DNA from: Myxococcales bacterium
Lineage (GTDB): Bacteria > Myxococcota_A > Bradymonadia > UBA7976 > UBA1532
DNA length: 64,000 nucleotides
NCBI GenBank assembly: GCA_020633435.1
Contig: JACKDP010000002.1
Span: 567,788 to 631,787, forward strand
Reading direction: 5' to 3'
Translations under genes and position numbers: made by a program
The notes under the pieces: model-generated
Database searches by the model: none
The model's input: only the letters and a program-made list of their open reading frames with translations
Told to the model about the DNA's origin: nothing
Shown here: positions 5,930 to 56,065 of the stretch, one piece after another
How the letters are laid out: each line of letters opens with the position of its first letter
Position numbering within the stretch: the stretch's first letter is position 1

Positions 5930-6823
5930 TCAAGGTGGGCGGACGAACAGGCGTGGCAACCGCAAGAGGTCGGCCTCGGGACGCACGGGGCCAGGGATGC
6001 AGGTCACGGCCGATGAAGCGCCGGCGCGCCGAACAGCAGCGACCACCCGGGCGTCGTGGGCGCCGTCCGGGTAGGCGAACGGGACCTCGGTCCCGAGCGG
6101 TCGCAGGGCCTCGATGGAGAGCTCGACCTCTCGCTGGAGGGCGAGGTCGTCCACCTGGGTGAGGCGAGGATGGCCGACGCTGTGCGCTCCGACCCGCATG
6201 CCCGCGGCCGCGAGGGCCGTCCAGTCGTCCGGTCGGAGGTACAGCTGGCGCGCCAGATCGTGGGGGAGCTCGACGCCGACCTCGCTCGCCAGCGCCGCGA
6301 GCATCTGCCGCTGCTGCTCGGGGGTCGCGGCCAGGAGGGCCGCCTTCGGCTCGCCGACGATCCAGGCCTGCTTCCCAGGGAGGGTGTCGAGCCGGCCGCG
6401 GAACTCGCCGCCGCCCGGCAGGGGCACCTCGACGAACGGCGCGCAGGCGTGGTCGAGCAGCCAGTACCAGGCGTCGACCGCGGCGACGTCGCGGCCGGCA
6501 CCCTGGAGGCCAGTCGCGACGTAGAAGGTCGCGGTCGCGCCGCGCGCACCGAGCAGGGGGGCGACGACGTCCACGTGCTCTCGATAACCATCGTCGAAGG
6601 TCAACGCGACGCCGGCGGGCGGTGGCTGGTCGGCCGCCAACGCGCTCTCGATGTCTTCCAGAGGCACTATTGGGCCGGCCTCGTCGAGGAGTCGGCTGAG
6701 CTCGCCGATGGTGAGCGCCGTGCCGCGCAGGCGGTAGCACCCCGGCAGCCCGAAGGCGACAGGCCCGTCATCGAGGACGCGGTGGAGCATCAGGATGTGG
6801 GTGGCGTCAGGCGGCCTCGACAT
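5930..6823 (-). CDS. polysaccharide deacetylase family protein (NodB homology domain)
   Basis: LTFDDGYREHVDVVAPLL...ATFYV...GAHSVGHPRL motifs. Last gene of the coupled minus-strand operon. Confidence 0.75.
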   Translation of the reverse strand: MSRPPDATHILMLHRVLDDGPVAFGLPGCYRLRGTALTIGELSRLLDEAGPIVPLEDIESALAADQPPPAGVALTFDDGYREHVDVVAPLLGARGATATFYVATGLQGAGRDVAAVDAWYWLLDHACAPFVEVPLPGGGEFRGRLDTLPGKQAWIVGEPKAALLAATPEQQRQMLAALASEVGVELPHDLARQLYLRPDDWTALAAAGMRVGAHSVGHPRLTQVDDLALQREVELSIEALRPLGTEVPFAYPDGAHDARVVAAVRRAGASSAVTCIPGPVRPEADLLRLPRLFVRPP

Positions 6824-7469
6824 CGACTGCCTTTCGCGCCAGGAACCCCAGCTCCATCACGGGGTGGGGCGGACGGTCGAGGAGGTGGCCGTACACGCCT
6901 CGCCAGGGCTCTTCCCACTGCTGCACGACATCGAAGGGGGCCATGAGGCGGGCAATGGCGCCGCGGTCGAGGGCGTGGGGATGCCCGGCGTTGCGCGGCT
7001 TGTCTGGCGGATTCTCTTCGCACGTCAGCCAGAGCCAGCCCCCCGGCCGCAGGATCCGGTCGATCTCCCGCAGGACCGCGTGGGGATCGGCGGTGTGGTC
7101 GATGCAGTTGGTGCAGATGACCAGATCGCAGGAGCCCGAGACGAACGGCAGTGTCTCGCCCGAGATCGCGGCGTAGGTCACCTCGGCCAGCGGGAGCGGG
7201 AAGCGCGTCGCGTACTGTTCGGCCAGGGGATCCACGCAGATCCGCCGGCCCGGGAGCCAGCGGAGGGGCGTCGTCAGGCCCCCGCCGACGTCGACCGACA
7301 GGGATGTGGCGGACAGCTCCAGCTGCTGGAGGACTTCCCGCATGCGCCGGGCCTGCAGCCAGTAGTCGAGGAGACGCGCTTCGGCGCCCGGAAGGCCGAG
7401 GAGCGGCATGAGCTTGCGGGTCTGCCAGTCCAGCGTCCAGCGGAGTCGCTCGGGGAGGTCAGAAGCCAC
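6807..7469 (-). CDS. class I SAM-dependent methyltransferase
   Basis: SVDVGGGLTTP (motif I GxGxG-like) and ILRPGGWLWLT (motif post-II). The stop overlaps the start of the deacetylase by 17 nt. Confidence 0.7.
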   Translation of the reverse strand: MASDLPERLRWTLDWQTRKLMPLLGLPGAEARLLDYWLQARRMREVLQQLELSATSLSVDVGGGLTTPLRWLPGRRICVDPLAEQYATRFPLPLAEVTYAAISGETLPFVSGSCDLVICTNCIDHTADPHAVLREIDRILRPGGWLWLTCEENPPDKPRNAGHPHALDRGAIARLMAPFDVVQQWEEPWRGVYGHLLDRPPHPVMELGFLARKAVDVEAA

Positions 7470-8007
7470 GGCTCACCTCCCGCGTGCCTGCGAGGTGGAC
7501 CGCGAGGTGGATGGCCTCGGCGGCGCTCGTCGCGCGGTGGAGGCGATCCTCGCGGCGCTGGTCGAGTTGCTCGTCGGCCAGCCGGGCGCTCCAGCCTTCG
7601 CCCTGGTCGAGTACCACGATGGGCTTGCCGTGCTGCCAGGCGAGCGCGATCTCGCTCAGGGTGCCCGAGCCGCCCCCGACCGCGATGACCACATCGGCGA
7701 GGGCGACCAGGATCGTGTTGCGGGCGTAGTTCATCCCGGTCGGCACGGCCAGGTCGACGAACGGGTTGGCGGCCGTGGCCTGGAGGCCCGGCAGCACCCC
7801 GATGACGCTGCCGTCGGTCCAGCCAGCGGCGAGCCGGGCGCCCTTCGAGGCGGCCGCCATCACCCCCCCGAGGCCGCCGGTCGCGACCCGCAAGCCGGCG
7901 TCGACGAGGCCGGCGCCGATGGCTTCGGCTGCAGCCAGGAGGGTGGCTGAGGCGGCGTTGCCACCCACGACGGCGGCGATGAGCCGCCGGGACTGTCCGG
8001 TCATCAC
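7459..8007 (-). CDS. LOG/SLOG-family Rossmann-fold protein (TIGR00725-like)
   Basis: VATGGLGGVMAAASKGA...VIAVGGGSGTLSEIALAW...KPIVVL pattern typical of LOG/TIGR00725-type nucleotide-binding proteins. ATGA overlap with the upstream bEBP gene. Confidence 0.6.
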   Translation of the reverse strand: MMTGQSRRLIAAVVGGNAASATLLAAAEAIGAGLVDAGLRVATGGLGGVMAAASKGARLAAGWTDGSVIGVLPGLQATAANPFVDLAVPTGMNYARNTILVALADVVIAVGGGSGTLSEIALAWQHGKPIVVLDQGEGWSARLADEQLDQRREDRLHRATSAAEAIHLAVHLAGTREVSRGF

Positions 8008-9530
8008 GTCAACTCCTCTGGGTCGTCCGGGTGGTCGATGTCGAGCGACTTCTCCGCGGCCGCGAGGCGGCGGCCGAAGTTCCGGGTGCTCTTGGGGTCC
8101 ATGCCGACCAGGCGGCCGGCTCTGGCCTGGACGCCACCGGCCTCGCGACGCGCCGCTCGGAGCGTAGCGACCTCGATGCGCTTGAGCTCGCGGTCGAGGT
8201 CACAGGGCAGACGCAGCGCCCGGGCAGCGGGGGGCAGGCGGTTCGTCGCGAGGGCGGCTCGGATGGCGTCGGCGCCGAGCTCATCGCCGAGGGAGGGGGC
8301 GTCGATGAGAGCCCGGACGAGGATGAGGCGCAGCTCGCGGACGTTGCCGGGCCAGTCGTGCTCCCGCAGGGCGGCGACGCCATCGGCGGTGACCCGGATG
8401 TCGCCGCGTCCGATGCGCCGCAGGAGCGCTGGGCAGAGCTGCGGCAGATCGTCCAGGGTCTGCCGCAGCGGGGGCAGGCGGATGATGCCCGCGGACACGC
8501 GGTAGAAGAGGTCCGTCCGCATGGCGCTCAGGCCGTCGCGATCCTGCGTGCGGCGCGGATCGCCAAGCGCGGAGACCACCAGGCGTCCGTGGACGATGAC
8601 AGGCGGCCGGGATGAGCCGACCGGCTCGACCAGGATGACCCCCTCTTCGACCCGGTTGAGGGCCCGGAGCAGCTTCCCCTGGACGCTGGGTGCGAGGTTG
8701 AACGCCTCGTCGAGGAAGAAGGTCCCGCCGTCGGCCTCGCGGATGCGGCCCGACCGATCGGTGTCCGCGCCGGTGAAGGCGCCCTTGCTGTGGCCGAACA
8801 ACAAGCTGTCGGCCAGCTCGGGCGGCAGCTGGGCGGCGTTCTGGGCCATGAACCGCCCTCGGCGGCCAGACTGCTCGTGCAGCATCGTCGCGACGACCTC
8901 CTTGCCCGTCCCCGTCTCGCCGATGATCAGCACCGGGAAGGGCTGGTCGGCGTACCGCGCGACCTTCTCGCGGACCTTCTCGAGCGCAGGGCTGGCGCCG
9001 ACGAGGTCGGTCTTCGCCGCCGGCGGGGGCGCCTGGAAGAGGTCGCGGCGTGTCTCCCAGCGCAGCGTGGGCCCGAGTCGCCGCTCTCCGAGCCAGAGGT
9101 CGGTCCTCGCGTGGGTGGTCACCGCTTCGGTTGCCGCGGCGACGAGGGCCGGATCGAGGTCCGCCGGCAGGTGCACGTCGAGGGCAGGCCCCTGCTTGAG
9201 CGGCATGCGAAGGCCGACGTTGGCCAGGTAGTGCGCGAGCTGACGGGCCAGCGCGTCGGCGTCGTCCTCGCCAGCGAGCTCGGTAGGCGCGATGGCCGTC
9301 AGGCCGTCCTCCGCGATGCCCGACAGTCCGAGGCTGCGCTGCATTTCGGCCAGGCGCGCACTGCGGGCGTGGTCCCGCACCTCCGGCTTGCGGGGGGCCG
9401 CCTCCCCGATGAGGAGCACCCAGCAGGGCGGGTGCTGGGCGAAGTGCCGGGCGGTGTCGATGTCCTTGGGGTGGTTGTGGGTCCGGTGCTGGGGGTCCGG
9501 CCGTACGAGGACGAGGTGAACGGTCTTCAC
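8004..9530 (-). CDS. sigma-54-dependent transcriptional activator (bEBP) with an uncharacterised ~230-aa N-terminal domain
   Basis: AAA+ sigma-54 interaction domain (VLIIGETGTGKEVVA, GAFTGA, FFLDE, ELFYRV, GNVREL) and a C-terminal Fis-type HTH. The start is a GTG at 9530 with AGGAG directly upstream. The track ORF extends to 9755 but that part is low-complexity read-through. The N-terminal region (VHLVLVRPDPQHRTHNHPKDIDTARHFAQHPPCWVLLIGE...) has no REC/GAF/PAS signature I recognise. Confidence 0.8.
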   Translation of the reverse strand: MKTVHLVLVRPDPQHRTHNHPKDIDTARHFAQHPPCWVLLIGEAAPRKPEVRDHARSARLAEMQRSLGLSGIAEDGLTAIAPTELAGEDDADALARQLAHYLANVGLRMPLKQGPALDVHLPADLDPALVAAATEAVTTHARTDLWLGERRLGPTLRWETRRDLFQAPPPAAKTDLVGASPALEKVREKVARYADQPFPVLIIGETGTGKEVVATMLHEQSGRRGRFMAQNAAQLPPELADSLLFGHSKGAFTGADTDRSGRIREADGGTFFLDEAFNLAPSVQGKLLRALNRVEEGVILVEPVGSSRPPVIVHGRLVVSALGDPRRTQDRDGLSAMRTDLFYRVSAGIIRLPPLRQTLDDLPQLCPALLRRIGRGDIRVTADGVAALREHDWPGNVRELRLILVRALIDAPSLGDELGADAIRAALATNRLPPAARALRLPCDLDRELKRIEVATLRAARREAGGVQARAGRLVGMDPKSTRNFGRRLAAAEKSLDIDHPDDPEELT

Positions 9531-10555
9531 GGGATCTCCTCCAGAGGCAGGACCGAGTAGATCTTCGCGTGGCGAGCCGGATCGGTGAGGTCGGTGCGGG
9601 CGAGCAGGCGGCCGGAGCCGCGGTCCAGGAGCAGGACGCTGGTCTCGCTGCCCTCGGGGGGTCGGTCCGCCCAGCGATGCCGGGGCAGGCGGCCCGACCG
9701 CACCTCCGTCAGGCCGACGGCGAGGTGGGCGTCGCTGACGGCCAGGCCACGGCACCAGCCGTGGTGGCCGGTTGCGAACGCGTGGTGGCGCAGGCGCTCC
9801 TGGAGTGTCGAGGCGTCGAGCTCGATGACCGAGCCGTCGATGGCGGTGAGCCAGACGGTGTCGGCCTCGGCGAAGCCGTCGTGCAGGAAGTGCCCCGAGA
9901 AGCGCGCCGCGACCGTGAAGTCGTGCAGGTCACGCAGTGTGCCGTCGGCGAAGCACGTGGCGAGCAGACGGTCGCGGACCCGGGCTACGTGGTTGACGTG
10001 GAGGTAGTCCGGGACCTTGAGCTGGTGGAACGGGGCCGACCGCCGGTCGGCGCTGTAGTAGCCAGGCTCGGTAGATCCCAGGGGCCAGGGCGGGGGCGTG
10101 GTGCCAGTCCAGCCGGGCTGGACCGGCGGCGCGTCCGTCGGGAAGTCCTCGCCGCCCAGGCGGCGAGCGTTGGCCCACGCGGGGAGGAGCCCGTGGCTGC
10201 CATGAAAGCGTCCGTCGAGGCCCAGGACGTCGACGGCCCCGAGCCCGGTGTTGGCCACGAAGAGCCGGTCGCCGAGCACGGCGACGTGGTGCAGATCGTT
10301 CATGCAGGGCTGGTGGAGCACGCCGGTCACCTCAGCGCGGCGGGGGTCGATGCGGACGACCGCTGCGTGCGCGGCGACATAGAGGAGGCCATCGCGGCCC
10401 AGGCTGCCGCCGGCGAAGCCCTTCGTCGGCACGCGCAGGTGGGGCGGCGGCGCCCAGCGCACGACGATCTCGGCCCGCTCGGCAGCCAGATCGACGAGCC
10501 AGACGACGCCCTCACCTCCGTCATCGAAGTACCCTCCGGTCACGAGGGCCTTCAT
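9527..10555 (-). CDS. conserved hypothetical protein (342 aa; no domain confidently recognised, possibly beta-propeller-like)
   Basis: Globular composition with His/Trp/Asp-rich motifs (MNDLHHVAVLGDRLFVANTG, YLHVNHVARVRDRLLATCFADG). The start overlaps the upstream stop by 4 nt and the stop overlaps the bEBP start by 4 nt. Confidence 0.5.
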   Translation of the reverse strand: MKALVTGGYFDDGGEGVVWLVDLAAERAEIVVRWAPPPHLRVPTKGFAGGSLGRDGLLYVAAHAAVVRIDPRRAEVTGVLHQPCMNDLHHVAVLGDRLFVANTGLGAVDVLGLDGRFHGSHGLLPAWANARRLGGEDFPTDAPPVQPGWTGTTPPPWPLGSTEPGYYSADRRSAPFHQLKVPDYLHVNHVARVRDRLLATCFADGTLRDLHDFTVAARFSGHFLHDGFAEADTVWLTAIDGSVIELDASTLQERLRHHAFATGHHGWCRGLAVSDAHLAVGLTEVRSGRLPRHRWADRPPEGSETSVLLLDRGSGRLLARTDLTDPARHAKIYSVLPLEEIP

Positions 10556-12849
10556 GACGGGCTCCGCCAGGCGCGGACGGCCTCCGGCAGCCGGGCCAGG
10601 AAGGCGCCCAGCTCACGCGGATCGCCGGGCAACGGCTCGCTGGCGCTGGCGAGCTCTTCGAGGGCGTCGAGGACGGCGCCCGCGCTGGTGATGGCCCCCT
10701 CGACCTCTGGGTCGCCCCAGGCCATCAGCTCACCGAGGGCCGACCGCAGCCGCGCGAGCTGGACGCGCAGGCCGCGCCGTTGGGCGATGACCCGAGCCTC
10801 CCTCGCCGGGAGCTCGTCGTCCAGCGACCTCGCCTCGGCGACGGCGCGGGCCAGCGCGACACCCCGCACCTGCGACGCGGTCTGGCGCGCCGCGTCGGCG
10901 ATGGCCGTGCGGAAGGGCCAGCCGGTTTGCTGCTCTCGGTTGTGGTGCAGCGGCAGTGTCGCTTCGACGACGGCGCTCGGCTCGTCGGCCCGCGCGAGGG
11001 CGGCCCAGACGGTGTCGGCGCGCCGGGTCGTGACCCCGTCGGCCGTGGCCAGGACGGGGGTCGGCCACCGGAACAGGGCGTCCAGATCCAGAAAGACGGT
11101 GTTGCCGCCTCGCCGCAGGGAGGGCCGAGGGGTCGACTCCGCCCCGTCCCAGACGAGCTGGCGGGTCAGCTGCTGCCCGTCGAGCAGTCGGGCCAGGTCG
11201 GCGATCAGCCCGAGCGCGACGGTCCGGACGGGTTCGCCGGCGCGATGGGGCGCGTAAGGCCAGACGTCGCCAGCCTCGGGCGCAATGGCCTCGGTGAGGT
11301 CATAGTAGGCGTCGAACATCGCCGACCGCTGGTCAGGCGGCAGCCAGCCAGCGTCGGGCCCCAGCTGCCGCATGCGCGCGATGTTGGCGGCGAGGTCGCC
11401 GAGTTGCCCGCCCAGGCAGTCGAGCCCGGGGACGGGCGGGTCGCCGGTGTACGTCCCCAGGATCACGCTGTGCTGAGGGAGCTCTGCCCAGAAGCGCGCC
11501 ACCCGGAAGAGCAGGTTGGTCTGCCGGCCGACCCGGCCCGCGGCGTCGCGCTGCTCGAAGGCCATGTCATCGTCGACCATCCAGACGACGATCGGGCGCT
11601 CCGCCGGATGGGGCAGGCCGGGGACGGGCTTTGCCAGATGGGCGCGGAGGGCCGCGACCTGGGCCTCGCGGGCGACGCCGATGGGGACGGGCAGGCGATC
11701 CCCGACGGGGGGGATGACGCCGTTCTCAGCCGCGCGGTCGAGGGCCGGGCGGAGGACGTCGAGCGGCACGCGGTGGACGACCACCGATCCGGCGGCCCCC
11801 ACCTGGACGTCGTCGGCCTGGGTCGCCGGCGCGTGGTTCTCGACGATCAACACCCCGACGTGGCCCGGATAGCGGGACGCGCTCACCTCCCGCGCGAGGG
11901 ACGCGAGGAGTCGCTGCACGGACGCCACCCGCCCGACCGTGGCCAGCGACACGAGCACGTCCGGCACCTCGTCGCGGCCAGGCGGCGCGACGCCCATGCT
12001 CTCGCTGACCTGCCCCCGGCCGAGCGCGAACCAGCGCCGCTCAAGCAGGAGCTCGGGCCGGTGCCGATGGAGGGCGTCCAGGGCGCGGCCGACCAGATCC
12101 GCCGGGAGGTTGAACTGTGTCGAGAGGAGCGCTTGAAGCCCCTCGCGACCCCCGACCCGGCGCGTCGTCCGCCCGACCCGGGTGTCGCGGGTGTAGACCG
12201 CGTCCCGCAGGGTGAGCACCGCGTCAGCGTGGATGCGCACAGCACGCAGACTCGCGAGGAACGGCCCGAAGCCAGGCTCCGAGTAGTGCGCGCGCACCAT
12301 GGGAGCGAAGTCCGCATAGGCGCAGAGACCGGGCTCGACGACATAGACGGTCTTCAGCGCTCCGTCGGGCAGGCGGCGGGTGAGCGTGGGGCCCGCCGGC
12401 GCCTGGGGATCGAAGGAGAAGTCCCAGCCCCGAAACGACTGGGTCTGTGCGGGACCGTCGAGGCGCCATGGGCGCAGGTAGGGGTGGCCGTTGCCGACGT
12501 CGCAGAGGAACCGATCGGCGCCCACCCGGGCGACGCAGACGAAGTGGTCGCCCGGCGCCCGGACGGTCGCCGCCGCGAGGTGGGCCTCGAACCCGAGGGC
12601 CTGGAGGAGCGCTGTGAACGGCGGCGTCGTGCGATCGCAGTTGCCGCCAACCCCAGCGATGGCCGCGTCGATGACCGTCGGGAGGGAGGGAAGCTCCCAG
12701 GGCTGGCCGTCGTTGGCCACCAGCAGCAGGTTGTGGAACGGCACGGCCATCAGGTGGGCCGCCTGCAAGCGCGCCAGGCCTGCCGCGTCAACGCTGACGT
12801 CGGGCCGGCCGAGCCGGGCCAGGTAGGCGTCGAGCCGCGCCGCGTTCAC
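10552..12849 (-). CDS. fusion protein: N-terminal arylamine N-acetyltransferase (NAT)-like domain + ~490-aa C-terminal domain with possible GT-A-like (DxD) features
   Basis: The GTG start at 12849 overlaps the M20 gene stop (GTGA). The N-terminus VNAARLDAYLARLGRPD...LARLQAAHLMAVPFHNLLL...GVGGNCDRTTPPFTALLQALGF resembles NAT-family N-termini (VPFENL, RGGYC-type Cys region). The C-terminal domain has GVLIVENH and VWMVDDDMAF motifs. The track ORF 10552..14220 upstream of 12849 is Arg-rich read-through antisense to nothing real. Confidence 0.55.
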   Translation of the reverse strand: MNAARLDAYLARLGRPDVSVDAAGLARLQAAHLMAVPFHNLLLVANDGQPWELPSLPTVIDAAIAGVGGNCDRTTPPFTALLQALGFEAHLAAATVRAPGDHFVCVARVGADRFLCDVGNGHPYLRPWRLDGPAQTQSFRGWDFSFDPQAPAGPTLTRRLPDGALKTVYVVEPGLCAYADFAPMVRAHYSEPGFGPFLASLRAVRIHADAVLTLRDAVYTRDTRVGRTTRRVGGREGLQALLSTQFNLPADLVGRALDALHRHRPELLLERRWFALGRGQVSESMGVAPPGRDEVPDVLVSLATVGRVASVQRLLASLAREVSASRYPGHVGVLIVENHAPATQADDVQVGAAGSVVVHRVPLDVLRPALDRAAENGVIPPVGDRLPVPIGVAREAQVAALRAHLAKPVPGLPHPAERPIVVWMVDDDMAFEQRDAAGRVGRQTNLLFRVARFWAELPQHSVILGTYTGDPPVPGLDCLGGQLGDLAANIARMRQLGPDAGWLPPDQRSAMFDAYYDLTEAIAPEAGDVWPYAPHRAGEPVRTVALGLIADLARLLDGQQLTRQLVWDGAESTPRPSLRRGGNTVFLDLDALFRWPTPVLATADGVTTRRADTVWAALARADEPSAVVEATLPLHHNREQQTGWPFRTAIADAARQTASQVRGVALARAVAEARSLDDELPAREARVIAQRRGLRVQLARLRSALGELMAWGDPEVEGAITSAGAVLDALEELASASEPLPGDPRELGAFLARLPEAVRAWRSPS

Positions 12850-14153
12850 GAGGCCCTCTCGGCGATGGCCCCGGTCCACCGGAAGATGACGTCCAGCTCC
12901 GCGACGTGCAGCGGGAACGTCCAGGCAGGCAGCGACTCGTTCAAGCCGTGGATGCGGGCGCCCGAGTCGTTCACGCCGAGGGCCAGGTAGCGGGCGCCCG
13001 CCGGCAGGCTCCGGTTGAACGGGCAACCGCCAGCGACGACGCTCTTGTTGAGGCCTCGGCACTCGTGGCGGGCCGCCACTCCCCAGCGGGACGCAAGGCC
13101 GCCGAGGGCCTTGAGGAGCTGGAGCATGGCCCCATCCGGTGGTTCGCTGGCGTCGCCGGGGCGCACGGTGCGCGCAAGCAGCCGCAGCGTGCCGTCCTCG
13201 TGGTCGTGGTAGCCCGTCTCGTCGAGCCAGAGCGTCGGCCGAAGGTCCTCCATCACGGCGGGCAGGAGGGCGTGCGCGACGGCCGATCCGGTCTCCTCCT
13301 CGCCCTGGATCAGCCACGTCAGCGCGGGCGTGCGCTCGAGCGTCGCGAGGCCCGCCAGGCGGCACGCCAGGGGGCCCTTGTTGTCCGCCACCCCCCGAGC
13401 GAAGAGGCGGCCATTGGCCTCGGTGAGCTTCCGGGGTGGGTGCACCCACTTCTGCTCCCGGCCGAACGGCGTCACGTCGTAGTGGCCGTACAGCACGACA
13501 TGCCCGGCCAGGCCCCGGGCCTCCCGGCGGGCGACGATGAGCGGGCGCCCGCGGTCCGCGCCCGTGACCTCGACCGCGAAGCCGAGGTCGTCGAGCCGGG
13601 CCGAGAGCCAGGCGACGCAGGCGTCGTGGTCGGAGCCCGCGGGGCTGGTGTCGAAGGCCGTCAGCGCGCGCAGCGCCGTCAGGGCGGCATCGGCGGGGGC
13701 GCTGTCTGCGGTCGGCACGGCCTCGTCGCCAAGGGACGTGCCGAAGCGCTCGGCCACAGCGCGGCCGAGATCGGCGCAGACCAGGTCCCAGAGCCCCTTG
13801 TTGCTCGACCCGTAGATGTCTCGCCCCATGTGGGCGCGGTGGGCCCGGCCGCTGATGACCGCCGCCCGGAACGCCGCAGCCACGGCCGCATGGTCCAGGG
13901 CCGGGAGGGCGACGGCGGCGCGCCCTGCGTCGATCATCCCGCGGACCGCGGGTCGCCGGTACACGGCCGCCAGGCTCTCCAGCGAGAGTCGATGCAGGCG
14001 CCCAGCCTCCTGCTCCTCGGGCTCCAGTCCCGTCCACCAGGCGAGGGTGCCGCCGGCTTCGATGGGGGTCGAGAGGGCGTGGGTGACCGCCAGCGCGCGG
14101 TGCAGCCCCTGCTTGAGGTGCGTCGAGCTCGCGTACATCTGGATGCGGTTCAC
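12846..14153 (-). CDS. M20 family metallopeptidase/amidohydrolase (ArgE/DapE-like)
   Basis: VVLYGHYDVTPFG and GVADNKGPLA motifs (M20 His/Asp metal ligands). GTG start at 14153 with GGAGG 7 nt upstream. The track ORF to 14564 includes low-complexity read-through. Confidence 0.7.
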   Translation of the reverse strand: MNRIQMYASSTHLKQGLHRALAVTHALSTPIEAGGTLAWWTGLEPEEQEAGRLHRLSLESLAAVYRRPAVRGMIDAGRAAVALPALDHAAVAAAFRAAVISGRAHRAHMGRDIYGSSNKGLWDLVCADLGRAVAERFGTSLGDEAVPTADSAPADAALTALRALTAFDTSPAGSDHDACVAWLSARLDDLGFAVEVTGADRGRPLIVARREARGLAGHVVLYGHYDVTPFGREQKWVHPPRKLTEANGRLFARGVADNKGPLACRLAGLATLERTPALTWLIQGEEETGSAVAHALLPAVMEDLRPTLWLDETGYHDHEDGTLRLLARTVRPGDASEPPDGAMLQLLKALGGLASRWGVAARHECRGLNKSVVAGGCPFNRSLPAGARYLALGVNDSGARIHGLNESLPAWTFPLHVAELDVIFRWTGAIAERAS

Positions 14154-14949
14154 GCCGCACCTCCCCGGAGCGTGGCGAGATGCGCGGCCGACAGACCCGG
14201 ACCCAGCGTCGGGAACACATCTTCGTTGAACGTGGCGCCGGCCGGCACCGAGACTCGCCCCGCCATGGGGTGCCACGCCGCCCGGGTCGGGTCGTAGGTG
14301 CAGGTCGCGTCCAGGTAGATGGTGATGTAGGCCCGGCGCCAGCCCGCGGTCGAGTTCGGTGGGCTCGTGTGCCAGGACAGGCAGTGATGGAAGACCGCTG
14401 ACCCCGCTGGGACGGCCACGGGCACGGCGTCGCGCTCCCGCTCGCCCCACACCTTGGCTTCGTTCAGGAAGTCGATGGATCGCGTGACCGGCTCCCGGTG
14501 GCCACCCGGCATGAACCGCATGGCCCCCGACTCGGCGGTCACATCGTCGAGCGCCAGCCAGCACGACACCGCCCGGGGCTCAGCGACGGGCCAGTTGGGC
14601 AGGTCTCGGTGCCACGGCACGGTGCTGCCGCCGTGCGGGGGCTTCACGATCAGGTGGTCGTGGAAGACGCGCACCCGCTGGCACCCGATGAGCTCCGCGG
14701 CGATGGCGGCGGCCCGCTGGTGGTAGAGCTGCTCCCGGAACACGGGGTTGTGCTCCCACACATTCGTCCACTGGGAGACCACCGCGAGGTAGTCGTCGAG
14801 CGGCGTGTCGATCTCGGCCGCCCAGGCCGCCGCCTGGGCCTCGAAGGCCTGCCGGAGCCGCGCGACGTCGGCGGGCGGCAGGATGGGGCCGATGACCACA
14901 TGGCCCTGCTCCTCGAACAGGGCGTGCTGCTGCGGGGTGACCTCAGGCA
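14150..14949 (-). CDS. phytanoyl-CoA dioxygenase (PhyH) family Fe(II)/2-oxoglutarate oxygenase
   Basis: The ATG at 14949 gives MPEVTPQQHALFEEQGHVVIGPILPPADVARL (typical PhyH N-terminus). WHRDLP...HHCLSWHTSPPN matches a HxD...H facial triad context. Confidence 0.7.
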
Positions 14950-15719
14950 TGGGGATGCTCCGTGATGGGCGCGCCGTCGGCGACGACCCGGCAAAGGGGG
15001 TGGTTCGGCGCGTTGGCGTGGCACCAGCGCACCTGAGGCGACAGGAAGATGCACGACCAGGCGGCCCGCTCACCGGGACGGACCATGGCAGGCGAGGCGT
15101 GGAACGTCGTGGGCGTGAACGCCACGGCGTCCCCGGCCGCGTAGGTCGGCGCGAACGTGGGCCAGGCCGTCGGGTCGAAGGCGAGATCGGCGCCCGCCTG
15201 CTGGGGGCGGCCATTGTGCAGGTCGACCACGGGCCGCGGCCCCAGGCGGTGGCTGCCGGCGGCGAAGCGGAGCGCCCCGGACTCGCCGTCCGAGGGCTGC
15301 AGCGGTACCCAGAGGACCACACCGAGGGGACGATCGACAGGCCAGTAGCCGAAGTCCTGATGCCACGGGAACGCCTTCTGCCCTCGCCGCTTGACCAGGA
15401 GCAGGTCCTGAAACAGCACGCCCGGCTCCCCCAGCAGGCCCTCGGCCAGCGGGCGCACGGCGTCGGCGACGGCGCGCGTCGAGCCAGGGCCCTCGTGCTG
15501 GAATGGGCTGAGCCACTGATCCATGAGGGCCGACAGCGGTGGCCGGTCGGTGGGCGCCGGCTGGTGTGTGTACAGCACCTGGCGGCTCATCGGCCGCTCG
15601 AGCGCGCGGCTCTCGGCCACCGCTGCGCGCAGGGCCTCCAGCATCCCAGCCGGGACGACGCCCGGGAGCAGGGTCACGCCCTGATCGGCGAGGGCGAGCC
15701 TCGCGTGGTCGAGGCTCAC
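14943..15719 (-). CDS. phytanoyl-CoA dioxygenase (PhyH) family protein, second paralog
   Basis: MSLDHARLALADQGVTLLPGVVPAGMLEALR...FPWHQDFGYWP...FHASPAM. The 7-nt overlap with the downstream PhyH gene indicates coupling. Confidence 0.65.
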   Translation of the reverse strand: MSLDHARLALADQGVTLLPGVVPAGMLEALRAAVAESRALERPMSRQVLYTHQPAPTDRPPLSALMDQWLSPFQHEGPGSTRAVADAVRPLAEGLLGEPGVLFQDLLLVKRRGQKAFPWHQDFGYWPVDRPLGVVLWVPLQPSDGESGALRFAAGSHRLGPRPVVDLHNGRPQQAGADLAFDPTAWPTFAPTYAAGDAVAFTPTTFHASPAMVRPGERAAWSCIFLSPQVRWCHANAPNHPLCRVVADGAPITEHPHA

Positions 15720-16014
15720 CGGACACCTCGCGGGCGCCGCGTCCTCCGGACCCGCAGCCGGTGCCGGTTCGGGGAGCGCACGGCCGTCACCACCGTCCCG
15801 TCCTCCGCCACGACGACGGCGACGCCGACCGCGCTGTCCGGGATCGTCGCCCCGAGCGCCCGGGCGGCCTCGGCGTCGCGCCAGCCGAGGTGCCAGGCCA
15901 CGCGGCCGTCCTCCTGGACGATGGGGGTGCCCCAGTTGAGGGCGAGTTCGATATGGTCGTCGGGGATGCTCCGCTGTGCGCAGCGGCGCCTCGCATGGGG
16001 GCTGAAGTCCGTCA
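15716..16014 (-). CDS. DUF4258-like small protein (99 aa), first gene of the operon
   Basis: The ATG at 16014 has GGAGG upstream and gives MTDFSPHARRRCAQRSIPDDHIELALNWGTPIVQEDGRVAWHLG..., resembling the HAxxRmxeRgI... pattern of DUF4258. The track ORF to 16309 is 5' read-through. Confidence 0.5.
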
Positions 16015-16052
16015 TCTGAGCCTCCGAGATGTGGGGACGCGACGATGGAGAG

Positions 16053-16068
16053 AGCAGGCCGTGTGCCA
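16053..16068 (-). promoter_or_regulatory. candidate sigma-54 (-24/-12) promoter TGGCAC-N5-cTGCt upstream of the 10-gene minus-strand operon
   Basis: The reverse complement of 16053..16068 reads TGGCACACGGCCTGCT, with GG and GC at the correct 10-nt spacing. It sits ~38 nt upstream of the operon's first ATG (16014). The operon encodes its own bEBP. A 13-bp palindrome GTGATGCAATCAC also lies in the same intergenic region at ~16118-16130. Confidence 0.4.
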
Positions 16069-16184
16069 GCGATAGAGCCCAGGTGTTACGTTGGCGGCCT
16101 CTCGCCTGTGATGCAATCACCTCTCGCTCCTGAGAATCGGGTCGGCGGGACGGTGAGGTCGGCGCCGGCTGGAGGGACGTCGAG

Positions 16185-16736
16185 ATGAGCGCTGACCGGA
16201 CAAGCAAGACCGACCGGAGCGCCGGGTCGATCCTGATCGTCGCCCTCTCGGGCCTGGGCAAGAGCACGCTGACCCGAGACCGGCCCTCCCGGGTCCTGGA
16301 CGCGGACACCTTTCTCTACACCGCGGTCGCTGAGGGCTTCCCCGACCTGGAGCCCCGGGCTCGCCTGACCGCCTGGCGCGACTTGTGCCGACAGCGGCCC
16401 TGGACCCAGGAGGGCGACGCCCTGGCCCGCTGGGCGGCCATCCGCCGAGGCTGGGTGGAGCCGTTCGTCGACGCGCTGCGCAGAGGCACCCACCCCCTCG
16501 TCGTGACGAGCCTGCTCGACCCGCCGTGGGTCGTCAGCACCTACTACGGCGTCGAGCGCGGTCGCTATCTCGAGCACCTCCGGCTCGCCGGTCGCCTGGC
16601 GGACAACGGCCAGTCCGAGGCGATGAACGACCGCCTCGAGGGCTACAGCCCCCTCGTTCGCCTGGCGCCGGGGACCTTCCTCGCGTCTCGGCCGGAGCTC
16701 CTCGCCGTCATCGATGCGCCCGATCGCCGCCGTTGA
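16185..16736 (+). CDS. P-loop NTPase / small kinase-like protein (AAA_33-like)
   Basis: Walker A ILIVALSGLGKSTL. GGAGGG RBS before the ATG. Divergent from the operon. Confidence 0.55.
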   Translation: MSADRTSKTDRSAGSILIVALSGLGKSTLTRDRPSRVLDADTFLYTAVAEGFPDLEPRARLTAWRDLCRQRPWTQEGDALARWAAIRRGWVEPFVDALRRGTHPLVVTSLLDPPWVVSTYYGVERGRYLEHLRLAGRLADNGQSEAMNDRLEGYSPLVRLAPGTFLASRPELLAVIDAPDRRR

Positions 16737-17947: not shown

Positions 17948-18880
17948 TCAGGGCAGCGGCGCGCAGGTGAGCGTCGTGCCGGGGTTGACGGTCTGCTCCC
18001 CGCAGACGGCGACGCTGGAGCAGCCGCAGAAGCCGTCGTAGCAGGTGTCCACGCCGCCCTGGTTGCAGTCGGCGTTCCCGGCGCAGCGGCAGATGCCGTC
18101 GTCGCCGCAGACCGACGCGTTCGTCATGCAGCTCCCGGCCGTGCACTTGCACAGGCCGCTGTCGACGTCACAGCGCGGGTACTCCCCCGAGCAGTCGGCG
18201 TCGCCCCGGCAAGGGAGCTGGCAGAACCGGTCGTCGTTGCAGATGGCCCGCGGCTGGCCGCACGCCGTCACCGTCCCCTCGGCGCCGAAGGCCGGGGCCT
18301 CGACCTCTTCCATGTTCAGGCTGGCGCACTGGATGAACTCGCCGGGGATGAGGGCACACCGGCCCTCGCCGCCGACGTCGATGCAGGCCTGCGTCCCGGC
18401 GGCGCCGCCGTCGCAGCCGCTGGTGTCGGCGCAGCTCATCAGCCAGCCGCTGAAGAGGGAGACGCACTGCTGGTTGCCGTCGCAGTTGGTGTTGCTGTCG
18501 GCCGGCCAGCACCGCTGGTCGCGACACTCGAAGCCCTGGATGCAGTCGGCGGTGTCCTCGCAGACCTCCTGGCAGAACATCGCCTCGCCGGGCGCGCCGC
18601 CGGCGCCCCCCTGGCCGCCCACGCCGCCCTCGCCGCCGACGCCCCCCTGGCCGCCCGCGCCGCCCTCGCCACCGAGACCGCCCTCGCCGCCGAGACCGCC
18701 CTCGCCGCCTGGACCGCCCTCGCCCCCAAGGCCGCCGACGCCCCCAAGGCCGCCCACGCCGCCTTCACCGCCGACGCCCCCCTGGCCCCCGGCGGCGTCG
18801 ATCTCGGCGTCCCCCGCCCCGACCCCGCAGGCAGCCAGGGCCAGCAAGAGTCCGAAAACAAATGACTTTCTGGCCAGCAT
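17948..18880 (-). CDS. lipoprotein with (GGxGG)n Gly-rich repeat region and Cys-rich C-terminal domain
   Basis: MLARKSFVFGLLLALAACG lipobox, a long GGQGGVGGEGGVGGLGG... stretch, then >30 Cys in a module (CQEVCEDTADCIQGFECRDQRCW...). Confidence 0.55.
   Translation of the reverse strand: MLARKSFVFGLLLALAACGVGAGDAEIDAAGGQGGVGGEGGVGGLGGVGGLGGEGGPGGEGGLGGEGGLGGEGGAGGQGGVGGEGGVGGQGGAGGAPGEAMFCQEVCEDTADCIQGFECRDQRCWPADSNTNCDGNQQCVSLFSGWLMSCADTSGCDGGAAGTQACIDVGGEGRCALIPGEFIQCASLNMEEVEAPAFGAEGTVTACGQPRAICNDDRFCQLPCRGDADCSGEYPRCDVDSGLCKCTAGSCMTNASVCGDDGICRCAGNADCNQGGVDTCYDGFCGCSSVAVCGEQTVNPGTTLTCAPLP
18586..18796 (-). repeat. degenerate tandem repeats encoding GG(x)GG units
   Basis: Periodic ggcggcgagggcggt/ctcggcgg units on the minus strand. 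Their antisense creates the spurious Pro/Ser-rich plus-strand ORF 18045..21395. Confidence 0.7.
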
Positions 18881-27053: not shown

Positions 27054-29945
27054 ATGCGCTCGACCCTGCGCACCGCGCTCCTCGCCCTCGCCCTGGCCCC
27101 CACCGGCGCGAGCGCCCTCAGCCTGCAGGACTGCGTCCCCAGCCAGGCGTCCCCCGGCGCCATGCTGCCCATCGGCGCGCCCGGCGACGACGGCTACCTG
27201 TACCGGAGCGTGCTCTACCAGTTCCTCCAGACCACCCAGCTCGCCGACGTCAGCTACCCGGCGACGTGGTGGCCGGCCGTCACGGCGTTCTCCCAGAACA
27301 CCGCCCTGCTGCAGATGCCGCCGATCGCCTACGGCGTCTACACCTACGTCTTCGGCAGCGGCACGCTGAACGCCGCCCAGCAGCCCGTGCCGGGCAACGG
27401 CTACGAGGGCATCTGCAAGGCCGACTGGAGCCAGGCAGCGCCGACCCTGACCGCCACCGACCGCCTGCAGATCGAGCAGCTCCTGCTCATGACCGTCCAG
27501 TACGGCATCGTGCCCGACCTCACCTACCGCTGCCTCTTCGAGCCCGCCATCTTCGAGCTCTCGTACATCGAGGACGTCGCCCGCTGCGAGGCCCGCGTGC
27601 CGGCGTTCCACGACCACTCGACGCTGACGTGGCTCATGCAGTGGGACTACCCCGGCAACATCTTCCGGCTCGCGCCGGACGTGACGCTGCGCCGCTTCGC
27701 CACCCACCTGGCCTTGCAGCTCATCCAGCTCGACTGGGCCGTCTGGCAGGGCGGGCCGGCGTCAGCGCCCATGACGGTGCCCTACCCGCCCCAGGGCACG
27801 CCCCCGGCCAACGGGGAGGTCTTCCCCCACCCGGGCCCCCTGAACGCCAACCACTACCCGTCCGGGGTGGGCAACCTCGCGGGGGACGACCTGGCGGACC
27901 GGCTGGTGCTGCTCGCCCGCATCTACGCGTGGGCCGACGAGGCCCAGCCAGCCTGGCTGACGCCCGGCCTGAAGGCGGCGTTCCAGGAGGGCCTCGCGCG
28001 CAACGGCGAGCGCCTGGCCCGCATGAACGTGCTGGGCATGCACACAAACCGGGCCTTCCAGGCCGTCCACGCCCTGGCCGCCATCAAGGCGGCGCTGGTG
28101 GGAACGTCCTGGCAGAACGCCGCGGTCGGGTGGCACAACCGGACGCTGGAGCGCTTCCTCGACGTCTTCCGGGAGGCCGGCTACTACGGCGACGATGATG
28201 GCCTCTACGACGCGGCCTACAACCGCTACGGCCTGCTGCACACCGTCCGGGCGCTGGTGCAGGACCCCGGCACGATCCTCGCCAACGTCGTCCGCCTGAC
28301 CGATCAGGCCCGCAAGCTGGGCAACCTGGAGGCGCACCTGACGTTCACCGACCGGACGGGCATCCACACCTCGCCCTCCGGCATGAGCGTGCGGACGGGC
28401 GCCGGGGTGGCGGGCCGCAGCCGCCGCGTCGTCGCGAGCGCCGACTTCGGCGTCAACCAGCTCGCCGCCCACGCCTTCGGGGTGCCCTACGCCTACGCCC
28501 GCGCCCGCGACCTGTCCCACGTCGGGCCCTACGACGCGGGCGGCTTCGCCGGCGCGGTGGACGCGCGCACGAACAACCCGGCCTACGAGGCCGACCTGGC
28601 CTGCTACGTCCACCCGAACTTCGACGCCTTCCCCTGGCTGCCCCAGCTCACCCCGCCGCCGCTGCCCCAGCAGACGGAGGACGGCCTGAGCGGCTGGTAC
28701 CGCCAGTACGGCACCCCGGTGCACGCGGTGGAGCAGCTCGCCCCGGGCTCCCTGCAGGCCTACGCCGACGCCCTCGACCAGGACCCGGGCGCGCCCCTGC
28801 TGCCCTTCGAGGAGGCGGGGCCGCATCTCGCTGATTTCGATGGGGAATTCGTCTTCGCCAAGTTCGGCGGGGCGGGCGTGTACTTCGAAGGCGCGCCGGG
28901 CGGGCCGAGCTTCGATGCCTACCAGCCGGCCAGCGCGCGCGACTACGCGGCGGTGGTGCACCTGGGCCCCGTCTCGCCGGGCCACAACGTCCCCCCCTGC
29001 GGCGAGAGCAACCCTCATGGCTACGGCGGCGGGCAGCTCGCGACGCTCTGGGCGCCCGGCGGCGGCCTGTTCTCGATGACGCGCCGCAAGGGCTACAACA
29101 ACGACTGCGAGTCCTGGCAGCACGGCGAGTGGACGGCCATCGCCCTGCACCACGTGGCGCTGCTCGACACCGCCGAGCGCGTCGCCACCAGCGCCCGCAT
29201 CCCCCTGCCCGCCACCTTCACCGCGTTCACGGCGGGCGCCCTGCCGTCCGGCGCCGACCGCGACTTCCTGGACGACGGCGCCGCCGGCATCGCGGGCCTC
29301 GCGACGCTGCCGGCGGATCAGGCCGACCACGCCTTCCTGGAGGCCGCCGGGCCGTTCTCGAGCCAGCGCTACCCCACCGACGGCAGCCTCGTGGAGACCG
29401 CGGCCACCCCCATCGACTACCGGCGGCGCTTCGTCCTCGGCGAGGGCGGCGTGACGGTGCGCACCGAGCTGCTGACCCAGACGGTCATCATGCCCACGGA
29501 GCGCCAGGGCCAGCCGGTGAAGCAGAAGGAGTACCCGCAGCCCATGCCGAAGGTCTTCCAGGCCTGGGAGATCTTGCCCCTCGGGACGGCGGAGGGGCCG
29601 ACGGCGACCGGGCACGTCGCCACCGACATCACCCTCATCACCGCCCAGGGCGCCGAGGTGGGCGTGCCGGGCCCCTCGCCGTCCTCGGAGGCCGTGGCCT
29701 ACGCCGACATCAAGTACGTCGTCGTCACGCGCGAGGCCGGGACGCTGACCATCGAGTTCGCGAGCCCCCAGACCATCGCCTTCTCGGAGGACTACACCGC
29801 CTTCGGGGGCGACACCCCGTCGCGCAACCTGATGGTCGACCTGACCCCGAGCCGCCTCTCCAGCGCCAACGTCCTGGCGGCGGCGCCCCAGGCCGAGGTG
29901 CTGCAGCCCGTCGTGGTGGAGTACACCCTGCGCGCCTCGCTGTAG
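27054..29945 (+). CDS. large secreted hypothetical protein (963 aa)
   Basis: The ATG at 27054 has GGAGG 5 nt upstream. MRSTLRTALLALALAPTGASALSLQDC signal peptide. Consistent coding composition, no recognised catalytic motif. The track ORF from 26814 is 5' read-through. Confidence 0.55.
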   Translation: MRSTLRTALLALALAPTGASALSLQDCVPSQASPGAMLPIGAPGDDGYLYRSVLYQFLQTTQLADVSYPATWWPAVTAFSQNTALLQMPPIAYGVYTYVFGSGTLNAAQQPVPGNGYEGICKADWSQAAPTLTATDRLQIEQLLLMTVQYGIVPDLTYRCLFEPAIFELSYIEDVARCEARVPAFHDHSTLTWLMQWDYPGNIFRLAPDVTLRRFATHLALQLIQLDWAVWQGGPASAPMTVPYPPQGTPPANGEVFPHPGPLNANHYPSGVGNLAGDDLADRLVLLARIYAWADEAQPAWLTPGLKAAFQEGLARNGERLARMNVLGMHTNRAFQAVHALAAIKAALVGTSWQNAAVGWHNRTLERFLDVFREAGYYGDDDGLYDAAYNRYGLLHTVRALVQDPGTILANVVRLTDQARKLGNLEAHLTFTDRTGIHTSPSGMSVRTGAGVAGRSRRVVASADFGVNQLAAHAFGVPYAYARARDLSHVGPYDAGGFAGAVDARTNNPAYEADLACYVHPNFDAFPWLPQLTPPPLPQQTEDGLSGWYRQYGTPVHAVEQLAPGSLQAYADALDQDPGAPLLPFEEAGPHLADFDGEFVFAKFGGAGVYFEGAPGGPSFDAYQPASARDYAAVVHLGPVSPGHNVPPCGESNPHGYGGGQLATLWAPGGGLFSMTRRKGYNNDCESWQHGEWTAIALHHVALLDTAERVATSARIPLPATFTAFTAGALPSGADRDFLDDGAAGIAGLATLPADQADHAFLEAAGPFSSQRYPTDGSLVETAATPIDYRRRFVLGEGGVTVRTELLTQTVIMPTERQGQPVKQKEYPQPMPKVFQAWEILPLGTAEGPTATGHVATDITLITAQGAEVGVPGPSPSSEAVAYADIKYVVVTREAGTLTIEFASPQTIAFSEDYTAFGGDTPSRNLMVDLTPSRLSSANVLAAAPQAEVLQPVVVEYTLRASL

Positions 29946-55872: not shown

Positions 55873-55935
55873 GCCCCTCCCGGCTTCTGTGCTACTGTCC
55901 GGGCCGCGGGGTTCTGCCACGTGGGCGTTGGACTT

Positions 55936-56009
55936 CAAACATTTGTCTAGCCTGGTCAAGACATTCGACTCGCATTCGAAGAACGCCGGTTCAAATCCGG
56001 CATGTACGA
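55936..56009 (+). tRNA. tRNA-like element (74 nt, anticodon CGC, Ala-type) with imperfect acceptor stem; possible pseudo-tRNA or att-site remnant
   Basis: Manual fold: D-stem gtct/agac with an agcctGGtca loop, a 5-bp anticodon stem ttcga/tcgaa with loop cTCGCat (U33, A37), a 4-nt variable loop, and a perfect T-arm gccgg-TTCAAAT-ccggc. The acceptor caaacat/atgtacg has two adjacent mismatches (2:71, 3:70). It is AT-rich relative to the genome and lacks G3:U70. Confidence 0.35.
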
Positions 56010-56065
56010 TCGGTCCGCCGCCGGGTGGGCCCCGCGCTTCACTCCCTCTCCCAGCCTGAGGCTCC

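Follow-up and report, generated by a model that had tools for sequence, protein, structure and literature searches.

What would be the product of a ten-gene operon that combines glycosyl transfer, acyl transfer, oxygenation and deacetylation and encodes its own sigma-54 activator? The question is raised by a block of minus-strand genes that runs from position 16015 down to 5930 of a 64-kb stretch of a Myxococcales bacterium contig (the window, meaning the whole stretch analysed). We favour, with a probability of about 0.5, an orphan cytoplasmic pathway to a small soluble amino-sugar glycoside that would be N-acylated and oxidatively tailored. An earlier, sequence-only reading of the same DNA had proposed a peptide, an amino acid or a glycan as the substrate. 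A sugar or glycoside now appears more likely than a peptide because the acyltransferase domain has a GT-A glycosyltransferase partner, the PhyH-family oxygenases have sugar-type relatives, and related clusters carry sugar-gene accessories.

Raw lists of open reading frames (ORFs) in the window were full of spurious frames (GC 72-79%), and genes were called by codon-position GC analysis together with inspection of start codons. The block contains ten genes, numbered g1 to g10 from 16015 downwards. All nine junctions overlap, by 4, 8, 4, 4, 4, 4, 4, 11 and 17 nucleotides (nt) in the order g1 to g10, in agreement with the ten overlapping or abutting genes described in the sequence-only reading. 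Most junctions are of the GTGA or ATGA type, and Shine-Dalgarno-like purine runs lie 5' of most junction starts. The operon start had been placed at 16014; the first codon begins at 16015, a trivial shift. The separation of the M20 gene from the NAT-fusion gene held up, as the frame indicated by GC at third codon positions (GC3) switches near 12850. A single gene of 1222 amino acids (aa) at 10552-14220 was rejected on this ground and because relatives have separate M20 and NAT/GT genes. Inside the operon, sigma-70-like promoters, terminator-like hairpins and Rfam elements were not found above chance, which supports a single unit over separate transcription units. The block is bounded by a divergent plus-strand gene from 16185 and by a convergent plus-strand gene that stops at 5917, 12 nt beyond the stop codon of g10.

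Related loci were retrieved (54, given here by L numbers) and the window proteins were mapped onto them by tblastn. A single-protein scan of genome contigs gave 2 loci, and an alignment-based metagenome scan gave far more. Counts refer to the 30 loci that contain g5 and span at least 9 kb, with redundant loci removed. The SLOG gene (g8) was present in 27/30 loci, the M20 gene (g4) in 25, the beta-propeller gene (g6) in 24, any PhyH gene in 23 and the CE4 gene (g10) in 21. The order PhyH, M20, NAT/GT, propeller, SLOG, CE4 was largely kept. Conservation of gene order had been proposed as a check on the unit, and the presence of these core genes in 21-27 of the 30 loci bears the unit out. The remaining genes of the block were rarer: the bacterial enhancer-binding protein (bEBP) gene (g7) occurred in 8/30 loci, the DUF4258 gene (g1) in 6 and the methyltransferase gene (g9) in 3. 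These three are lineage-specific accessories and not part of the core. Carriers of the cluster comprise dozens of myxobacterial and marine genomes, among them three from cultured species: Cystobacter fuscus (at about 1,449,600-1,457,100 of CP022098.1), Corallococcus terminator and Nannocystis pusilla.

Genes added to the cluster in relatives encode a UDP-Glc/GDP-Man-type dehydrogenase, an NAD epimerase/dehydratase (10/30 loci), a family 2 glycosyltransferase (GT2; 6/30), a carbamoyltransferase of the NodU/CmcH type (4/30) and a major facilitator superfamily (MFS) transporter (2/30). The compact Cystobacter and Corallococcus versions add an extra GT2. Natural products that contain sugars typically come with anabolic and export functions of this kind. 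No Wzx, Wzy, ATP-binding cassette (ABC) or lipid-carrier genes were found in the loci whose called genes were listed, and no N-terminal signal peptide was evident when the ten protein sequences were read by eye.

The gene that defines the counted loci, g5 (12849-10552), encodes a bifunctional protein of 765 aa. A NAT-family domain occupies about aa 1-270 and is followed, at about aa 290-765, by a GT-A domain and then a helical domain. The NAT domain matched Pfam Acetyltransf_2 (PF00797) over aa 24-249 (E-value 1.6e-13; 51.4 bits against a gathering threshold of 22.8). Its PDB profile matches included the arylamine N-acyltransferase 8k51 and the amide synthase GdmF, with best E-values of 1e-25 to 1e-21. 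In an alignment of 26 sequences the triad residues H102 and D117 were invariant and C71 was at least 90% conserved. Full-length homologues of g5 number about 100, and the named ones belong to Myxococcota, Sandaracinaceae, Myxococcales and Nannocystis.

The C-terminal half of g5 (480 aa) had no match in Pfam or, by sequence, in the PDB. An AlphaFold2 model with a predicted local distance difference test (pLDDT) score of 90 gave a GT-A glycosyltransferase fold and then a helical domain. W423, D426-D428, R580-N583, R609, R610, D612, H636 and R638 were invariant in 26 homologues, within the motifs W-x-x-DDD, RGGN, RR-x-D and H-x-R. Model and motifs together identify this half as a predicted GT-A glycosyltransferase domain with a DxD-type motif. 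Its family is rare, with 266 hits among 1.84 billion cluster representatives at E <=1e-3. Distant relatives are proteins of 1200-1950 aa in which the domain is joined to GT2 and S-adenosylmethionine (SAM)-methyltransferase domains, and these fusions favour a transferase role. Six relatives of the segment at 10555-11997 (P0257, P0269, P0327, P0306, P0347 and P0291), in which the domain lies within proteins of 900-1950 aa, look like multi-domain polysaccharide synthases. In the distant marine loci L042-L047 and L052 (24-30% identity) the NAT and GT halves are encoded separately, by adjacent genes, and this arrangement supports a functional connection.

The invariant residues of the GT-A domain also recall a different chemistry, that of the GT75 family (NDP-pyranose mutases and reversibly glycosylated polypeptides), which was compared through MtdL and the plant UDP-arabinopyranose mutases. 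MtdL, a GT75 mutase that acts on nucleoside diphosphate (NDP)-pyranoses in the A201A pathway, uses a DDD motif together with His287 and Arg289 (PMC9937993), and these resemble D426-D428 and H636/R638 of g5. However, MtdL was absent from the PDB profile matches of g5 at E <=1, and ordinary transferases, GalNAc-T1 and GlfT2 among them, have scores close to its own. No invariant Arg corresponding to the self-glycosylated Arg159 of MtdL was seen by eye between the DDD motif of g5 and the next conserved block.

Two adjacent genes, g2 (15719-14943; 258 aa) and g3 (14950-14150; 266 aa; core), encode PhyH-family Fe(II)/2-oxoglutarate dioxygenases. Both show the HxD...H facial triad and the 2-oxoglutarate-binding Arg of the family: H120, D122, H207 and R218 were invariant in 31 sequences of g2 (Pfam PhyH, E 2.4e-22), and H114, D116, H194 and R205 were invariant in g3 (E 1e-39). 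The closest solved relative of g2 is EvdO2. Those of g3 are SnoK (1.6e-23), EvdO2, MysH, SnoN and the putative oxygenase 4xaa.

Core gene g4 (14153-12846) encodes an M20-family metallohydrolase of 435 aa whose catalytic domain covers about aa 160-435. Pfam Peptidase_M20 (E 3e-14) and NCBIfam matches spanned aa 160-310, and aa 1-160 had no family match in Pfam or in PDB sequence searches. H224, D226, D257, E285, E312, H402 and E406 are conserved; among them are the M20 di-metal ligands and catalytic Glu (H224, D257, E285(/E286), E312 and H402), conserved in 31 sequences. The inserted dimerisation (lid) domain of M20 enzymes is lacking: no M20_dimer match was obtained, and Pfam and PDB alignments do not extend beyond the first half of the catalytic domain. 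In the PDB, g4 is related to carnosinase, DapE and ArgE. The homologues in L004 and L009 are shorter, at about 275-290 aa.

Core gene g6 (10555-9527; 342 aa) had no match in Pfam or, by sequence, in the PDB, and its fold, like that of the C-terminal half of g5, was assigned by structure prediction alone. The prediction is a six-bladed beta-propeller, distantly DUF4915-like, with an invariant His/Asp/Cys cluster. More than 370 homologues were found, including proteins of Cystobacter fuscus, Corallococcus terminator, Hyalangium and Pyxidicoccus.

The SLOG/LOG-like Rossmann protein g8 (8007-7459; 182 aa; core) belongs to the TIGR00725 family, with an NCBIfam score of 119.6 bits against a cut-off of 106.9 bits and a Pfam LDcluster4 match at E 7e-35. 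Its PDB relatives are 1rcu, a molybdenum cofactor carrier protein and LOG enzymes. The motifs GGxxGxM and GGxGTxxE and residues R96 and N97 were invariant in 33-37 sequences, the invariant positions including G44, G45, G48, M50, R96, G112, G113, G115, T116 and E119. These include the catalytic Arg and Glu of the family (Arg96 and Glu119), and g8 may be a nucleosidase. The last gene, g10 (6823-5930; 297 aa; core), encodes a CE4 metal-dependent de-N-acetylase (Pfam Polysacc_deac_1, E 1e-15) with weak relatives of the PgaB and HfsH type. D77 and D78 of its TFDDG motif are invariant, and H214 and H218 of HSVGH were conserved in 22-23 of 23 sequences.

The catalytic residues of six enzyme families and of the propeller were conserved down to 24-39% identity (PhyH, M20, LOG-like, CE4 and NAT across loci), and because of this conservation the proteins are predicted to be working enzymes. 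Pfam and NCBIfam returned the same calls as the ten original domain assignments, and the NAT, PhyH and M20 calls on which that interpretation leaned hold, with their catalytic residues conserved. The protein previously listed as a conserved hypothetical (g6) is indeed conserved, and now has a predicted fold.

Among the accessories, g1 (16015-15716) is the first gene and encodes a small DUF4258-like protein of 99 aa. Its Pfam match is borderline (E 1.5e-5; 25.6 bits against a 25-bit cut-off), it has a ribosome-binding site GGAGG at 16025-16021, and it is kept as first gene only in the bEBP-containing clade. The class I SAM-dependent methyltransferase g9 (7469-6807; 220 aa) matched Pfam Methyltransf_11 at E 5.5e-14. 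In relatives a TP_methylase gene stands in its slot, or a UDP-sugar dehydrogenase together with an epimerase; L012 and L014 have a UDP-Glc/GDP-Man-family dehydrogenase and an epimerase in its stead.

The divergent gene g0 (16185-16736, plus strand) encodes a P-loop kinase-like protein of 183 aa. Its Walker A motif is GLGKST, with G25, K26 and T28 conserved; Pfam gave only weak AAA_16 and AAA_33 matches, and the PDB gave no informative relative. A g0 homologue adjoins the cluster in L001, L003, L011, L012, L014, L027, L008, L028 and L050. Other loci carry a related AAA_33-like P-loop gene, so that one or the other is present in 15/30 loci. Gene g0 is part of the conserved unit. The ten-gene extent first given for the operon stands, and the coordinates chosen for it leave out this co-conserved neighbour.

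How the operon would be switched on is suggested by the region upstream of g1. A -24/-12 element lies on the minus strand at 16053-16068, consisting of TGGCAC (16068-16063), ACGGC and CTGCT (16057-16053), with the spacing that is canonical for sigma-54 promoters (TGGCAC-N5-TTGCW). It ends 37 nt before the g1 ATG at 16015, which matches the TGGCAC-N5-CTGCT element noted previously about 38 nt 5' of the first gene. This is the sole TGGCAC-N6-TGC match in the window, and since about one is expected by chance, the match alone is not significant. Its significance comes from position and from conservation in relatives. The GGCA and TGC cores were invariant in seven loci, with variable spacer and flanks. 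The distance from TGGCAC to the g1 start was 42-43 nt in L003, L011 (CGGCAC), L012, L014, L016 and L027; in the window and in L001 it was 53 nt. L016 is an AT-rich contig, too short to show whether a bEBP is present.

Within 655 kb of loci, 9 of 18 strict -24/-12 matches lay directly 5' of the first gene of the cluster, including those in the distant L025 and L028. A variant element was found 5' of the cluster in L022, and L034 has an element beside a divergent bEBP-like gene. No such element was found 5' of the cluster in the loci that have no bEBP (L004-L009). These comparisons establish a phylogenetically footprinted promoter, predicted to be of the sigma-54 type. Compared with the rest of their clade, the window (16016-16052) and L001 have 11 extra nt separating the -12 element from the ribosome-binding site.

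Further upstream, at 16098-16135 on the minus strand, a direct repeat and a dyad form a candidate enhancer (upstream activating sequence). The repeat GCGAGAGG occurs at 16127-16120 and at 16105-16098, spaced 22 nt, and flanks TGCATCAC (16115-16108). The dyad consists of TCTC (16135-16132), six bases and GAGA (16125-16122). In L003, L011, L012, L014 and L027 the arrangement of CGAGA, about 14 bases and CGAGA recurs around TGCATCA, as does the TCTC-N6-GAGA dyad with variable spacer. The CGAGA repeats and dyad are good candidates for an enhancer that g7 would bind.

The activator gene g7 (9530-8004) encodes a sigma-54 bEBP of 508 aa. It matched Pfam Sigma54_activat (E 1e-41) and AAA_lid_14, and it has the Walker A, Walker B and GAFTGA-loop motifs (GETGTGKE, FFLDEA and KGAFTGA). 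Alignments to NorR and RtcR reached about aa 490, into the C-terminal tail, which resembles a helix-turn-helix (HTH). Residues 1-170 had no match in Pfam or the PDB. Full-length g7 was found only in the clade of the window (L003 and L011-L014). Shorter bEBP-like genes, covering the AAA+ region only at 35-40% identity, occupy different positions in L022 (12547-13500), L026 (14425-15123) and L034 (5495-6124, minus strand). Elements are borne by L022 and L034, which have a short bEBP-like gene, and by L025 and L028, in which no bEBP was detected. This distribution suggests either repeated acquisition of sigma-54 control or an origin that predates the clade of the window.

In the closest relative, L001 (contig JAWKQS010000025.1), whose intergenic region is almost identical, the bEBP gene at 13307-13806 matches only aa 1-134 before the SLOG gene starts. 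Several other genes of L001 are in frame-shifted pieces, and the truncation may be a real loss of the regulator or a product of poor assembly of a metagenome-assembled genome.

From this arrangement we infer a simple circuit. In this lineage the whole operon would be transcribed from the sigma-54 promoter, and the operon-encoded g7 would activate it, probably from the upstream CGAGA repeats. Positive feedback would follow once a signal reaches the N-terminal domain of g7. Of the auto-regulatory layout proposed by the sequence-only reading, the operon-encoded bEBP is confirmed, and autoregulation itself is suggested by the layout alone.

For the enzymes, the favoured reading translates into six steps. 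The GT-A half of g5 would transfer a sugar of the UDP-N-acetylhexosamine type to an acceptor; in some relatives the sugar might be a uronic acid or an epimer made by the added dehydrogenase and epimerase genes. The CE4 enzyme g10 would then remove the N-acetyl group, and the NAT half of g5 would re-acylate the freed amine through a Cys-acyl intermediate, as in NAT-family amide synthases. Hydroxylation or oxidative rearrangement of the scaffold by g3 and g2 could follow. Further steps would fall to g4, g6 and g8: an amide might be hydrolysed, a lyase- or transferase-type reaction might take place, and a unit derived from a nucleotide might be released or bound. Finally, g9 would methylate the product and g0 may phosphorylate it. 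In a possible variant, by analogy with blasticidin-type pathways, g8 would free a nucleobase that is later re-glycosylated.

The same set of enzymes could instead serve catabolism or detoxification. On this view the bEBP would sense a compound of foreign origin, such as one from prey or competitors, which could be an N-acetylated amino sugar, an aminoglycoside, an arylamine or a peptide-like molecule. The deacetylase, amidohydrolase, dioxygenases, nucleosidase, N-acetyltransferase and methyltransferase would then degrade or inactivate it. Substrate-sensing bEBPs such as XylR, DmpR, PrpR and AtoC typically control catabolic operons, and g7 scored comparably against PrpR and AtoC models. NAT enzymes (PF00797) are the classical xenobiotic-acetylating enzymes, the CE4, M20, LOG-like and PhyH proteins are all hydrolytic or oxidative, and the operon is without a scaffold-forming enzyme. 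However, the NAT domain is fused to a GT-A domain and is nearest to biosynthetic acyltransferases and amide synthases. Relatives recruit an anabolic UDP-sugar dehydrogenase, epimerase, carbamoyltransferase, extra GT2 and MFS transporter, and both the regulator and an uptake system are absent from most loci. We therefore regard a catabolic role as unlikely.

It is likewise doubtful that the operon modifies a cell-associated glycan or protein. Residues of a protein might be hydroxylated and then glycosylated, as by collagen LH3/GLT25D1, or a surface polysaccharide might receive a hexosamine that has been de-N-acetylated and re-acylated; in neither case would a free small molecule result. The distant relatives of the g5 GT-A domain, at 1200-1950 aa with GT2 and methyltransferase domains, are of polysaccharide-synthase type; the CE4 relatives PgaB and HfsH act on polysaccharides; and the Cystobacter and Corallococcus versions carry the extra GT2. 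In contrast, no flippase, polymerase, ABC exporter, initiating phosphoglycosyl transferase or membrane protein was found in the window operon or the annotated loci, a signal peptide was not evident by eye in the ten proteins, and no conserved candidate substrate protein was found in the cluster.

An anti-phage or inter-bacterial conflict system is very unlikely. In such a system the enzymes would produce or alter a toxic molecule, derived from a nucleotide or a sugar, when infection occurs; SLOG would sense nucleotides or act as a nucleosidase, DUF4258 would be a toxin-like part and the bEBP would be the trigger. This would suit the relatives that adjoin defence genes (L003, L004, L005 and L009), the SLOG and DUF4258 domains, which recur in conflict systems, and the match of the g7 AAA+/HTH part to the PADLOC RtcR_PspF2 models. 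Against it, the core proteins match no PADLOC model, and the match of g7 does not extend to its N-terminal sensor region. Both DUF4258 and the bEBP are missing from most loci, the operon of the window has ordinary flanking genes, and many loci carry biosynthetic accessories.

A search of PADLOC-DB v2 gave no match for g1-g6 and g10, only the generic AAA+/HTH part of RtcR models for g7, and weak partial matches for g8 and g9. A known defence system was rejected on the lack of PADLOC matches to the core proteins. The defence-type neighbours are Fic and AbiEii/AbiEi beside the related cluster in L003 (4331-5497 and 17287-18740), BREX PglZ/BrxD/helicase and GmrSD in L004 (1-6819 and 15704-17575), NB-ARC and nSTAND1 in L005 (17771-22343), and a Schlafen-like helicase in L009 (4596-6584).

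Several observations weigh against the pathway to a tailored amino-sugar glycoside. The compact Cystobacter and Corallococcus versions are without SLOG and PhyH genes and the marine versions without propeller and CE4 genes, and because of these missing core genes the chemistry may differ across the family. Several relatives are located in defence islands. Only a minority of loci carry an exporter, and no known scaffold-forming enzyme (polyketide synthase (PKS), nonribosomal peptide synthetase (NRPS) or cyclase) was found in the cluster. None of the enzymes has an equivalog-level NCBIfam match, and Pfam gave no HTH family for g7, although the NorR, RtcR and PADLOC RtcR_PspF2 alignments do run through its C-terminus. 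The nature of the product and of the acceptor and the sequence of the reactions are proposals, and the roles given to g1, g4, g6, g8 and g0 are guesses from fold alone.

A more specific version of the favoured pathway has, in our estimate, a low chance of being right. The cluster family, in Myxococcota and marine bacteria, would make a new class of N-acylated amino-sugar or hexosyl-nucleobase metabolite that serves as an inducible chemical defence against phage or competitors, with the NAT-GT-A enzyme and the DUF4915-like metallo-beta-propeller as two catalysts not described before. Such a defence would explain both the repeated placement in defence islands and the dedicated sigma-54 switch in some lineages.

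The locus matters for several reasons. It encodes three novel proteins: g5 fuses a NAT domain to an unclassified GT-A domain, the conserved beta-propeller g6 has its invariant His/Asp/Cys cluster, and the bEBP g7 carries a sensor domain of a new kind. Natural products come in large part from myxobacteria, and this non-PKS/NRPS cluster, widely conserved and with no known product, probably escapes standard genome mining. Its occurrence in cultured Cystobacter, Corallococcus, Hyalangium and Nannocystis makes it directly testable. The footprinted promoter and candidate repeats point to a biosynthetic operon that gained its own sigma-54 switch, and they offer a handle for activation. If the product were an ordinary sugar derivative, the finding would be a solid but unremarkable gain in annotation.

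Apart from g0, the flanks of the window operon are common only to the near-identical L001, and the flanking genes were for this reason rejected as members of the system. They are ordinary genes, among them a cysteine-synthase-like gene and genes for an oxidoreductase, an ion channel and an esterase. On the minus strand at 17948-18880, a gene shared only with L001 encodes a secreted or lipoprotein-like protein with long GGxGG repeats and then a Cys-rich C-terminal region. At 34730-41236 (minus strand) lies one high-GC3 ORF of about 2168 aa. ARAGORN called two over-long tRNAs on the minus strand within strongly coding high-GC3 ORFs of the plus strand, a tRNA-Pro of 90 nt (1696-1785, within 1456-2730) and a tRNA-Val of 85 nt (29342-29426, within 27054-29945); both are probably false positives. 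A tRNA-Ala at 55935-56011 (plus strand) is intergenic and plausible.

How does the cluster compare with known systems? The sequence-only reading had recognised no described cluster, and this view stands: PADLOC was empty for the core proteins, no NCBIfam equivalogs were found, and full-text literature searches on its families and domain combination returned no description.

The nearest analogies are sugar-tailoring cassettes. Those of mycothiol, tunicamycin, streptothricin and pactamycin glycosylate, deacetylate and re-acylate. The proposed UDP-N-acetylhexosamine transfer, N-acetyl removal and acylation would, by analogy, be shared with these and with blasticidin S, and optional carbamoylation, methylation, epimerisation and MFS export would fit as well. 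In blasticidin-type pathways a nucleotide N-glycosidase frees the base and a GT-A enzyme re-glycosylates it with a UDP-uronic acid, a scheme that would be compatible with g8, with the GT-A domain and with the UDP-sugar dehydrogenase seen in relatives. The differences are considerable. No enzyme of the present cluster is an orthologue of those in the known cassettes; its deacetylase is CE4, whereas theirs is of LmbE type, and its acyltransferase has a NAT fold, whereas theirs are GNAT or ATP-dependent enzymes. Its GT-A family is unclassified, a beta-propeller and a truncated M20 protein belong to the core, and radical SAM enzymes, aminotransferases, PKS and NRPS are absent.

The N-terminal domain of g5 shares its fold family and Cys-His-Asp triad with the NAT amide synthases and N-acyltransferases GdmF (geldanamycin), RifF (rifamycin) and PDB 8k51. 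Those enzymes stand alone, at about 260-300 aa, and either close polyketide macrolactams or acylate arylamines; the g5 domain is instead fused to a glycosyltransferase, with no PKS nearby. The PhyH enzymes are closest to SnoK, EvdO2 and HygX-like sugar-tailoring enzymes. Among solved structures, SnoK and SnoN (nogalamycin) and EvdO2 and its relatives (orthosomycins) come closest to g3 (E 1.6e-23 to 5e-13) and to g2, and their HxD...H and Arg residues are likewise conserved here. The likeness is at family level only, and no anthracycline or orthosomycin genes lie nearby.

The regulatory part resembles the sigma-54/bEBP control of secondary metabolism and development by Nla- and HsfA-type activators of myxobacteria: an activator with AAA+ and GAFTGA features is paired with a -24/-12 promoter ahead of a metabolic operon, in a genome that is GC-rich and of Myxococcota type. 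It differs in that the activator is encoded within its own target operon and in its novel N-terminal domain, which has no Pfam match and no receiver, GAF, PAS or FHA domain. Set beside these systems, the locus is most likely an orphan operon for sugar-tailoring biosynthesis, in which the enzyme architectures are new and a sigma-54 switch is built in.

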